In this document: in pieces, positions 787-3,892 of the stretch
How positions within the stretch are numbered: the stretch's first letter is position 1
Layout: each line of letters opens with the position of its first letter
Source: a virus
Lineage: Duplodnaviria; Heunggongvirae; Uroviricota; Caudoviricetes
DNA: 4,116 nucleotides
Direction: 5' to 3' (one strand)
IMG/VR virus record: IMGVR_UViG_2698536449_000007
Translations under genes and position numbers: made by a program
Notes under the pieces: model-generated
Databases searched by the model: none
Told to the model about the DNA's origin: nothing
The model's input: only the letters and a program-made list of their open reading frames with translations

Positions 787-839
787 TAAACAACAAAAAA
801 CCCGCCGAAACGCTGAGAGATCACAGCGATGGGCGGGTT
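787..839 (-). terminator. Rho-independent terminator at the 3' end of the hok transcript
   Basis: In minus-strand RNA the stem CCCGCC (837-832) pairs with GGCGGG (806-801), with additional inner CGCTG/CAGCG pairing (811-815 with 824-828), followed immediately by UUUUUUGUUGUUU (800-787). Lies about 80-130 nt downstream of the hok stop. Confidence 0.55.
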
Positions 840-841
840 AA

Positions 842-858
842 GTGCGGGTGCGTTGAGG
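842..858 (-). promoter_or_regulatory. fbi-like 3' element of hok mRNA (complementary to the 5' tac-like segment at 1229-1244)
   Basis: Plus 842-858 (GTGCGGGTGCGTTGAGG) matches the reverse complement of plus 1229-1244 over 15 positions with one bulged base. In a single minus-strand transcript these two segments can pair, bringing the 3' end onto the predicted 5' end. Confidence 0.4.
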
Positions 859-878
859 ATGCCTGACACATCAGAGGT

Positions 879-906
879 GGGCGGGGATGGGATCAGCTCC
901 CCGCCC
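879..906 (-). other. Stable GC hairpin in hok 3' UTR
   Basis: GGGCGGGG (879-886) and CCCCGCCC (899-906) form a perfect 8-bp GC stem with a 12-nt loop, beginning 9 nt downstream of the hok stop codon. Confidence 0.4.
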
Positions 907-914
907 GGTCACTC

Positions 915-1070
915 TTACTTCCTGGATTCGTAGTCTACGAAGACAGCGACCTCCGTCTGGCCGGTTCGGATTCGTACCTCACAGAGGTCTTTCCTCGTTA
1001 CCAGTGCCGTCACTATGACGGTTAAACAGATGACGATCAGGGCGATTAACATCGCCTTTTGCTGCTTCAT
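915..1070 (-). CDS. hok: Hok/Gef-family type I toxin (51 aa, membrane-depolarising peptide)
   Basis: ORF MKQQKAMLIALIVICLTVIVTALVTRKDLCEVRIRTGQTEVAVFVDYESRK. Basic N-terminus, single hydrophobic helix (LIALIVICLTVIVTALV), then the TRKDLCEVR and EVAVF...YES-type C-terminal signature of Hok/Gef peptides. AGGAG lies 9 nt upstream of the ATG (1070-1068); stop TAA at 917-915. Confidence 0.85.
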   Translation of the reverse strand: MKQQKAMLIALIVICLTVIVTALVTRKDLCEVRIRTGQTEVAVFVDYESRK

Positions 1071-1127
1071 AGCCTGCTTCTCCTTGCCTTTCGGCATGTA
1101 AGAGGCTAACCTACATGTGCAAAGCAT
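915..1127 (-). CDS. mok: mok-like leader reading frame (in-frame N-terminal extension covering hok)
   Basis: ATG at 1127-1125 with GAGG about 8 nt upstream; encodes MLCTCRLASYMPKGKEKQA followed by the Hok sequence in the same frame. Matches the organisation of chromosomal mok/hok pairs, where mok translation is needed for hok translation. Confidence 0.5.
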   Translation of the reverse strand: MLCTCRLASYMPKGKEKQAMKQQKAMLIALIVICLTVIVTALVTRKDLCEVRIRTGQTEVAVFVDYESRK

Positions 1128-1178
1128 GAAATTGGCCTCAGATTAATGTTAAGCGTCTTGCCGGACGCGTAATGTTAA
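1112..1178 (+). ncRNA. sok: Candidate sok-type antisense RNA (boundaries approximate)
   Basis: Positional inference only. A plus-strand antisense transcript is expected to cover the mok SD and start (1125-1140). Possible -35 TTGCCT (1084-1089) and -10 TAACCT (1106-1111); a 5-bp hairpin at 1153-1168 (GCGTC/GACGC) is followed by a weakly U-rich tract. Both signals are weak. Confidence 0.22.
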
Positions 1179-1246
1179 CTGGGGCTTTTCTCTATCTGCC
1201 TTTTGGTGTTCATGCCTGAAGCAGATAGCCTCAAGCACCCGCAGTC

Positions 1247-1276
1247 ATTCTACTTACCTCGCCAATATGAAATCAA
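1247..1276 (-). promoter_or_regulatory. Candidate promoter of the hok/mok transcript
   Basis: Minus strand TTGATT (1276-1271), 18-nt spacer, TAGAAT (1252-1247). Predicted start near 1240, coinciding with the tac-like segment 1229-1244 that is complementary to 842-858. Implies an mRNA of about 450 nt ending at the 787-839 terminator. Confidence 0.4.
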
Positions 1277-3581: not shown

Positions 3582-3800
3582 TCAGCTTTCCTTATACGGA
3601 TTAATTTTATTGTGCAGTGTGTTGAATGACGCCCATACCACGTCGTTATACAATTCAATAACTGGCTCAATTATTTTTCCGATTATCCAGACAAAAATTA
3701 GCGGGGATATCGGTGTCATCAACACGATAAACAGAATGAGAAACAGGAATTCTGTTGTTCTACTCTTTCGCGGATATTTTTTTCTAAATAATGTAACCAT
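3582..3800 (-). CDS. Small putative membrane protein (72 aa)
   Basis: ATG 3800-3798; basic N-terminus (RKKYPRKSR) followed by a hydrophobic segment FLFLILFIVLMTPISPLIFVWIIGKII consistent with one TM helix. Stop TGA (3584-3582) is 1 nt from the HNH ATG, suggesting coupling. No family recognised; AT-rich, so a chance ORF cannot be excluded. Confidence 0.45.
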   Translation of the reverse strand: MVTLFRKKYPRKSRTTEFLFLILFIVLMTPISPLIFVWIIGKIIEPVIELYNDVVWASFNTLHNKINPYKES

Positions 3801-3806
3801 TCATTA

Positions 3807-3850
3807 CCGCCCTTTCGGGCGGTCTCCTGATGATTTGAGGGTGCAGAAAT
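3807..3850. repeat. 44-bp direct repeat, copy B (43/44 identical to 2046-2089)
   Basis: CCGCCCTTTCGGGCGGTCTCCTGATGATTTGAGGGTGCAGAAAT. Perfect 6-bp stem with tetraloop (CCGCCC-TTTC-GGGCGG) and a second stem GAGGG-N9-CCCTC completed by the following CCCTC. Ends 6 nt upstream of the small-ORF ATG on the coding strand. Confidence 0.9.
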
Positions 3851-3892
3851 CCCTCCGGTTAAGGATTAAATTTTTAACAGTGCTAAATTTAA

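Follow-up and report, generated by a model that had tools for sequence, protein, structure and literature searches.

An intact hok/mok/sok type I toxin–antitoxin module related to hokW–sokW in a lambda-like prophage, as indicated by sequence comparison

The question raised by an earlier note on this DNA was whether a hok-like toxin frame and its flanking sequences, located at 1276–787 on the minus strand of the window (the whole 4116-nt stretch that was analyzed), form a complete and potentially functional hok/mok/sok locus. Read in the sense of this strand, a promoter is followed by a leader of 171 nt, mok and Hok in the same frame, a GC hairpin, fbi, and finally an intrinsic terminator (Table 1). 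The leader was recognized by RF01794, the Rfam model of the hok/sok leader, which was the sole Rfam match in the window at E ≤ 1. The match, at 1240–1065 (−), scored 117 bits (gathering score 59, E = 3.6e-27) and spanned the full model (1–157), the structure line of which includes the tac-stem. Because this match has the orientation of hok and its end falls within the hok Shine–Dalgarno sequence and AUG, with Sok encoded on the opposite strand, it describes the leader of the hok mRNA. The Hok peptide matched the Pfam family PF01848 (HOK_GEF) with 81.1 bits (cut-off 22, E = 4e-23), the NCBIfam Hok models matched it below their curated cut-offs (55 vs 73 bits), and an identical protein is named HokD in the NCBI pipeline (WP_014532198.1). 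Alignment to characterized hok/sok loci led to the same assignment. Between the −10 hexamer and a point shortly beyond fbi, the DNA shared 92% identity with hokW/mokW/sokW of phage 933W and Sakai prophage Sp5 (GenBank AF125520), the annotated hokW/mokW/sokW carried by VT2-Sakai is likewise 92% identical to the window, and the prototype hok/sok (parB) locus of plasmid R1 has the same order and spacing of elements. Together with the end pairing found in the computed fold and by RNAalifold, which is described below, these matches bear out the claim of a complete locus. On this comparative evidence, the region 1276–787 (−) is an intact hok/mok/sok type I toxin–antitoxin module in a lambda-like prophage.

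Table 1. Features of the hok/mok/sok region, in window coordinates
Feature	Position	Strand	Basis
hok promoter, −35-like hexamer TTGATT	1271..1276	−	promoter scan
hok promoter, −10 hexamer TAGAAT	1247..1252	−	promoter scan; kept in 933W and other loci
tac element, 5′-terminal 12 nt, GGGUGCUUGAGG	1229..1240	−	pairs with 846–858
Alternative tac partner AAGCCCC (tac-stem of the processed open form)	1181..1187	−	RF01794 structure line
mok ORF, 70 codons, in frame with hok, common stop	915..1127	−	ORF list; layout as in annotated mokW
hok toxin ORF, 51 aa plus stop	915..1070	−	HOK_GEF match; likeness to HokW
GC-rich hairpin after the stop codon	879..906	−	inverted-repeat search; conserved alifold helix 15
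fbi element, CCUCAACGCACCC, C852 bulged	846..858	−	complementary to tac; fold, RNAalifold, per-sequence counts
Intrinsic terminator, interrupted hairpin then U-run	787..839	−	direct folding
Sok promoter, TTGCCT (1084–1089), 17-nt spacer, TAACCT (1107–1112)	1084..1112	+	homology to 933W, published mutation
Sok antisense RNA (predicted), 71 nt	1119..1189	+	coordinates transferred from the sokW misc_RNA of phage 933W

Both the Hok frame and the in-frame mok leader frame claimed for this locus were found (Table 1). The mok frame is preceded by a Shine–Dalgarno sequence, GAGG, at 1139–1136, 8 nt 5′ of its AUG, and the hok frame by AAGGAG at 1085–1080. As in mokW, the two frames are in register and end at a common stop, which differs from R1, where mok and hok are read in different frames and the two starts (116–118 and 174–176) are 58 nt apart (PMC9841398); the corresponding distance in the window is 57 nt. 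By analogy, hok would be translated through the overlapping mok by translational coupling. The promoter-like element described at 1247–1276 was likewise present on the minus strand. Its two hexamers are separated by an 18-nt spacer and match 9 of 12 consensus positions, and it was one of two sites returned by the scan against 0.5 expected. The −35-like TTGATT is not kept in the relatives, in which the homology begins at about 1256. The hok mRNA probably starts at G1240, 6 nt downstream of TAGAAT, as suggested by the R1-type locus (L052), which has the same spacing between the −10 hexamer and the +1 G, and by the RF01794 model, which begins at 1240.

In the predicted Sok RNA, a single-stranded 5′ tail of 9 nt is followed by a long hairpin, and the 3′ terminus falls within a U-run (−30.2 kcal/mol, z = −5.0); the RNA covers the mok Shine–Dalgarno sequence and AUG. 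The consensus promoter scan did not pick up the Sok promoter, the TAACCT hexamer of which is a poor match to the −10 consensus. Its position was taken from the homology to 933W and from a published mutation. Both hexamers are identical to those of sokW, with one mismatch in the spacer, and the primers YO-421/YO-422 change the sequence homologous to the −10 hexamer at window positions 1107–1112, the resulting mutant losing antitoxin activity (PMC8621323). The position of the antisense promoter within the leader, like the overlap of mok with hok, is also a feature of R1.

The earlier note had further described a complementarity of 15 positions with one bulge between the two ends of the transcript. 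The segments 1244–1229 (CUGCGGGUGCUUGAGG) and 858–842 (CCUCAACGCACCCGCAC) indeed form 15 Watson–Crick pairs with C852 bulged, of which 12, between 1240–1229 and 846–858, make up the conserved core; the three outermost pairs, of 1241–1243 with 843–845, are missing in most relatives. These three probably lie upstream of the transcription start, because both the start of the RF01794 model at 1240 and the spacing in the R1-type locus place them there. The complementarity could be a chance match, with regulation exerted by Sok antisense pairing only. This reading could draw on the lack of conservation of 3 of the 15 pairs, and on the duplex energy of the 5′ 16-mer with the 3′ UTR, which was equaled in 145 of 5000 dinucleotide-shuffled 3′ UTRs (p ~0.03), so the complementarity alone is only modestly significant, as the note had anticipated. 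For this reason, covariation and position were relied on instead. With respect to position, when fbi was compared with the whole 4116-nt strand (~4100 positions), seven of its eight best partner sites, the top one included, were in the region 1240–1246 at the 5′ end, and the same arrangement of the ends occurs in the R1-type locus, for which there are experimental studies of it (PMC9841398).

For the analysis of covariation, 47 related loci from representative genomes were compared, of which 30 distinct ones (the window included), each with both ends, were kept. They are of the HokC/D/W type and represent five genera (Escherichia, Kluyvera, Photorhabdus, Pantoea, and Citrobacter); as a reference, an R1-type plasmid locus obtained by protein search was added. 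Two distant plasmid matches (H67 and H64), an IS26-truncated hok and a leader fragment, were left out. The data showed that all 12 core pairs can form in 28 of the 30 loci and 11 of the 12 in the other two. Position 4 of the helix is U-A in 17 loci and C-G in 11, with one U-G and one C·A; at position 11, G-C, G-U, and A-U were seen; and position 12 is G-C in 18 loci and A-U in 11, with G-U also occurring. Hence, compensatory changes uphold the pairing at 3 of the 12 positions across the five genera. The MAFFT alignment brings the outer half of the helix out of register between the lineages with and without the bulged base, so the column-based counts cover the inner six pairs only, and the full 12 were counted in each sequence with one bulge allowed. 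RNAalifold applied to the 30 loci found the end-closing helix on its own. In the whole consensus structure 98.4% of the cells were paired, against 37–48% with the partners slid, and double changes were seen at 16 pairs, against 1–5 with the partners slid, in a control to be read with the caveat that the consensus structure came from the same alignment. R1 likewise has a 5′ tac, GGCGCUUGAGG, compared with GGGUGCUUGAGG in the window. The window sequence is identical to the tac of 933W, as is its fbi to that of 933W, and the tac–fbi pairing is also preserved at hokC-type loci of other Escherichia species. The explanation by chance is thus already disfavored by the covariation, and we give it hardly any credence. 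The comparative evidence is decisive in indicating that the tac–fbi pairing is real and maintained across the relatives. The set illustrates how the end pairing of hok mRNAs is upheld by compensatory changes from Escherichia to Photorhabdus, which agrees with the published R1 model without extending it.

The folding of the predicted full-length transcript (447 nt, 1240–794) gave a minimum free energy (MFE) of −189.6 kcal/mol (z = −8.5). In this fold, nucleotides 1–12 pair with 846–858 at probabilities of 0.97–1.00 and close the molecule, with full pairing of the hok AUG and 92% pairing of the mok AUG. The sequence AAGCCCC (1187–1181), which would be the alternative partner of tac, is invariant in the 30 loci. 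When enforced in 3′-truncated RNAs, the tac-stem was 1.4–2.2 kcal/mol above the MFE, and it was not the MFE structure at any of three candidate 3′ ends beyond the GC hairpin; the MFE structures of these truncated RNAs used a local 5′ hairpin, which resembles the metastable hairpin of R1. The two folds for which the note had suggested checking the predicted 450-nt transcript therefore fared differently, as the closed full-length fold was obtained with high probability, and the active fold is not demonstrable by thermodynamics alone since the tac-stem is not the MFE in the truncated RNAs. The alternative partner for tac appears available, and the switch of partners itself may be proposed from the model.

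At the 3′ side, the hairpin that follows the stop codon is perfect and located where it had been described, with a stem of 9 bp (8 G-C and 1 A-U; 879–887 with 898–906) rather than the claimed 8, and a 10-nt loop. It is presumed to be the 3′-terminal protective stem–loop of the processed mRNA, by analogy to R1, in which mutations in the last stem–loop of the truncated mRNA destabilize that mRNA (PMC9841398). A consensus terminator scan of 650–1450 found none, because the loop exceeds the 8-nt limit of the scan. Direct folding of 787–839 showed the intrinsic terminator reported there, in which an 8-bp stem (832–839 with 799–806) encloses a second stem of 5 bp, and UUUUUUGUUGUUU comes next (−24.2 kcal/mol, z = −5.7). 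The R1-type reference locus has the same succession of stop codon, GC hairpin, fbi, and terminator as the window. In relatives, a compact AACCCGC-TTCG-GCGGGTTTTT hairpin occupies the terminator site, and the loop in the window has a 25-nt insertion. The window keeps a terminator after fbi, whereas the homology to 933W stops right after fbi, and no obvious hairpin with a U-run follows there.

The closest characterized relative is hokW–sokW. Previous studies showed that HokW arrests growth, and that sokW RNA made from its own promoter neutralizes it, with a contribution of RNase III and Hfq on which the antitoxin depends in part (Takada et al. 2021, PMC8621323). The mutation of the sokW promoter removes the protection, and after induction hokW–sokW speeds lysis and doubles phage release (PMC8621323). 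Window Hok and HokW are identical at 50 of 51 amino acids, residue 50 being R in the window and E in HokW. The sokW RNA is 71 nt long, as is the Sok RNA predicted for the window. The loci differ in the −35 region and in the neighboring genes, the window-type locus being flanked by queH and a hypothetical gene within the early-right (nin-like) region and co-directional with the phage genes, while that of 933W lies beyond the tail genes. They also differ at 7 of about 17 bases in a patch at 1133–1113, which takes in the start of mok, the 5′ tail of Sok and the target loop, so window Sok and SokW may not cross-react. With respect to its nearest relatives, the window allele is distinguished by the insertion in the terminator loop, a GC-hairpin loop longer than that of 933W, the E50R substitution and the divergent mok-start/Sok-tail patch. 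Among other known systems, hokD (relF, of the K-12 Qin prophage) and hokC (gef) encode Hok proteins of the same subgroup, window Hok being 90% identical to the HokD type and ~80% to the HokC type, with a C terminus of VDYESRK in the window versus TAYEPEE in the hokD/hokC comparison. The Hok of R1 is more distant, at ~44% identity to HokW by the count of the hokW authors (PMC8621323), and R1 hok/sok is plasmid-borne with a role in post-segregational killing, in contrast to the prophage-borne copy in the window.

All the ORFs of the window are on the minus strand, and they correspond to DUF4014, an HNH endonuclease, an unassigned 221-aa ORF, DUF551, QueH, hok, a 95-aa ORF, and DUF1367. The whole 4116-nt window was contiguous in no complete E. 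coli genome, the best coverage being 68% in several pieces, and by this comparison the region is a mosaic. A 44-nt repeat had no match in the phage collection. A 561-nt region of the locus was matched at 100% in two genomes labeled as E. coli, FDAARGOS_943 and FDAARGOS_944. In FDAARGOS_943, the one of the two whose flanks were inspected, the locus has the replication genes of a lambdoid prophage on one side and its Q/lysis genes on the other, and this prophage is heavily disrupted by IS600, IS1, and IS2 and contains pseudogenes.

Such surroundings raise the possibility that the window carries a decayed or silent chromosomal hok relic without toxin or antitoxin output, as reported for the hok loci of E. 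coli K-12. This would be consistent with the finding that chromosomal hok loci tested earlier mediated no post-segregational killing (bioRxiv 10.1101/2025.08.07.668861), and with two peculiarities of the window, which are the unusual 25-nt insertion in its terminator loop and one A·C mismatch, unique to the window, in a small hairpin at the UACG motif. A locus altered in this manner does exist in the comparison set, the K-12-like hokD locus L008, in which the 5′ regulatory region is replaced and the 5′ leader, tac, and Sok region are absent. The window has all three of these parts, and no other element is missing either, because the −10 hexamer, tac, its tac-stem partner, the Sok hexamers, both ORFs, the hairpin, fbi, and the terminator are all in register with the relatives. 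Its Hok is one residue away from a toxin shown to be active (HokW), and there is no IS within or adjoining the locus. Taken together, we regard decay of the module as improbable, and favor, with high confidence, its assignment as a prophage-borne member of the hok/mok/sok family, an allele or close paralogue of hokW–sokW, which is expected to work like R1 and hokW.

In the R1 model, the mRNA is closed by tac and fbi, and after slow 3′ trimming the tac-stem forms, the mok Shine–Dalgarno region opens, Sok binds and RNase III cleaves the duplex (PMC9841398). The authors of the hokW study left open whether the shorter RNAs seen there are R1-type processed forms (PMC8621323). Adopted for the window copy by homology, the model would apply as follows, with all steps after transcription drawn from this analogy. 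A weak constitutive promoter would give a stable mRNA of ~447 nt, from 1240 to about 794, in which tac–fbi pairing closes the molecule and the mok and hok start regions stay paired, as computed. The closed RNA would be neither translated nor bound by Sok. Slow exonucleolytic trimming from the 3′ end would strip the terminator and fbi and halt at the GC hairpin, upon which the released 5′ end could re-pair with AAGCCCC and expose the ribosome site of mok together with the target of Sok. The unstable 71-nt Sok, as in hokW and R1, would pair across the mok Shine–Dalgarno sequence and AUG and block mok, and therefore also the coupled translation of hok, while the duplex would be passed to RNase III. 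When the supply of Sok stops, Hok would be made and the inner membrane damaged. The expression, 3′ processing and toxicity of the window copy are thus predicted from homology. Its likely roles are retention of the prophage, or aid to lysis and phage release on induction as described for hokW, the latter being moot in FDAARGOS_943 because the host prophage is degraded by IS elements.

The orientation of the locus allows a further, speculative connection to induction. The hok gene is on the same strand as the genes of the early-right operon (nin-like region) of the prophage, and hence the Sok promoter would fire head-on into this operon. Antiterminated read-through upon induction could silence Sok by transcriptional interference, and it could in addition supply hok RNA in which tac lies inside the molecule rather than at a free 5′ end. 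If so, this would explain the RecA-dependent loss of SokW and the timed production of Hok that were described for hokW. As a separate idea, the hypervariable patch at 1133–1113, in the Sok 5′ tail and target loop, may make co-resident hok/sok copies orthogonal. We consider these ideas unlikely, if worth stating.

As a type of locus, the module is already known and has been characterized experimentally in the 92%-identical relative. It is real and at the same time ordinary, because it is a well-known module with such a close characterized counterpart as hokW–sokW. Its value is mainly in annotation, where it can be labeled as a complete hok/mok/sok (hokW/hokD-type) module, and it has little importance beyond that. 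In the genome records examined, the hok CDS is the sole feature annotated at the locus, and automatic annotation omits the Sok RNA, the mok frame, and tac/fbi. The suggestion that an intact-looking locus of this kind stands out among its decayed counterparts did not hold, as in 2130 of the 5426 complete E. coli genomes compared one copy spans 80% or more of the 561-nt region. Megablast matches to this region were present in 4713 of the 5426 genomes, at a median of two places per genome and a maximum of nine. The locus was also matched by 79 phage records, and a Shigella flexneri genome carries it at 99.6%.

The hok leader of the window locus is 90–100% conserved apart from one short patch at the start of mok, which is variable. 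Among eight loci of the HokD/W type the mean pairwise identity in this patch was 0.63–0.65, and in comparison with hokW/mokW/sokW of 933W, the closest relative of the window locus, it differs at 7 of about 17 bases. Since the patch maps to the 5′ tail of Sok, which is single-stranded, its variability may insulate co-resident hok/sok copies from one another's antitoxins.

Features of the window identified in the analysis, with their coordinates
Feature	Position	Strand	Basis or detail
Hypervariable patch at the start of mok, with the 5′ tail of Sok and the target loop	1113–1133		
UACG at Hok Tyr47	927–930	minus	inside a small hairpin, about 921–935
25-nt insertion in hok terminator loop	807–831	minus	comparison with relatives
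Second promoter-like site (TTGATT, 16 nt, TAGAAT)	747–774	minus	promoter scan, 9/12
QueH, epoxyqueuosine reductase, prophage-encoded	1298–1984	minus	Pfam, 220 bits
44-nt direct repeat, two copies	2046–2089 and 3807–3850		98% identical, CCGCCCTTTCGGG[T/C]GGTCTCCTGATGATTTGAGGGTGCAGAAAT

Members of the hok family differ in the frame that mok occupies with respect to hok. In the window the two genes are in frame, with the start codons (1127 and 1070, respectively) 57 nt apart, and mokW of 933W has the same frame and spacing. On the other hand, mok of the prototype plasmid R1 is out of frame with hok, the start codons being separated by 58 nt (PMC9841398), and an IncF Klebsiella plasmid also carries an out-of-frame mok, which is annotated as DUF5431. 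These differences fit the view that it is the translation of mok, and not its product, that matters.

Within the Hok coding sequence, the Tyr47 codon is part of a UACG motif located in a small conserved hairpin. The hairpin shows covariation in the RNAalifold alignment of 30 loci (columns 312–326; CG/UA 15:14 and GC/AU 20:7). An A·C mismatch in its stem is found only in the window. According to a recent preprint, the equivalent Tyr is recoded to Cys by TadA A-to-I editing of the hokC, hokD, and hokE mRNAs (bioRxiv 10.1101/2025.08.07.668861).

The hok terminator of relatives is compact (AACCCGC-TTCG-GCGGGTTTTT), while that of the window carries in its loop the 25-nt insertion, which folds into its own 5-bp stem and is present in the window and its 99.6–100% matches (three genomes). 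In 933W hokW an equivalent terminator after fbi, the 3′ segment that pairs with the 5′-terminal tac, is absent. Just downstream of the window terminator, and upstream of a 95-aa ORF (665–378), there is a second promoter-like site with both hexamers the same as in the hok promoter; it could be the promoter of this ORF or a chance match.

On its other side hok is directly preceded by queH, and the queH–hok pair was annotated in 20 of 20 E. coli genomes among the matches listed. Both copies of the 44-nt direct repeat, which contains a small GC hairpin, are intergenic, one upstream of queH and the other directly upstream of the DUF4014 ORF. The repeat, which had no match in Rfam, could be a lambdoid module-boundary sequence or an undescribed regulatory or sRNA element. 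Among 5426 complete E. coli genomes, 455 have matches, mostly without annotation, to the second copy with its flanks (3800–3860), at no more than three places per genome.
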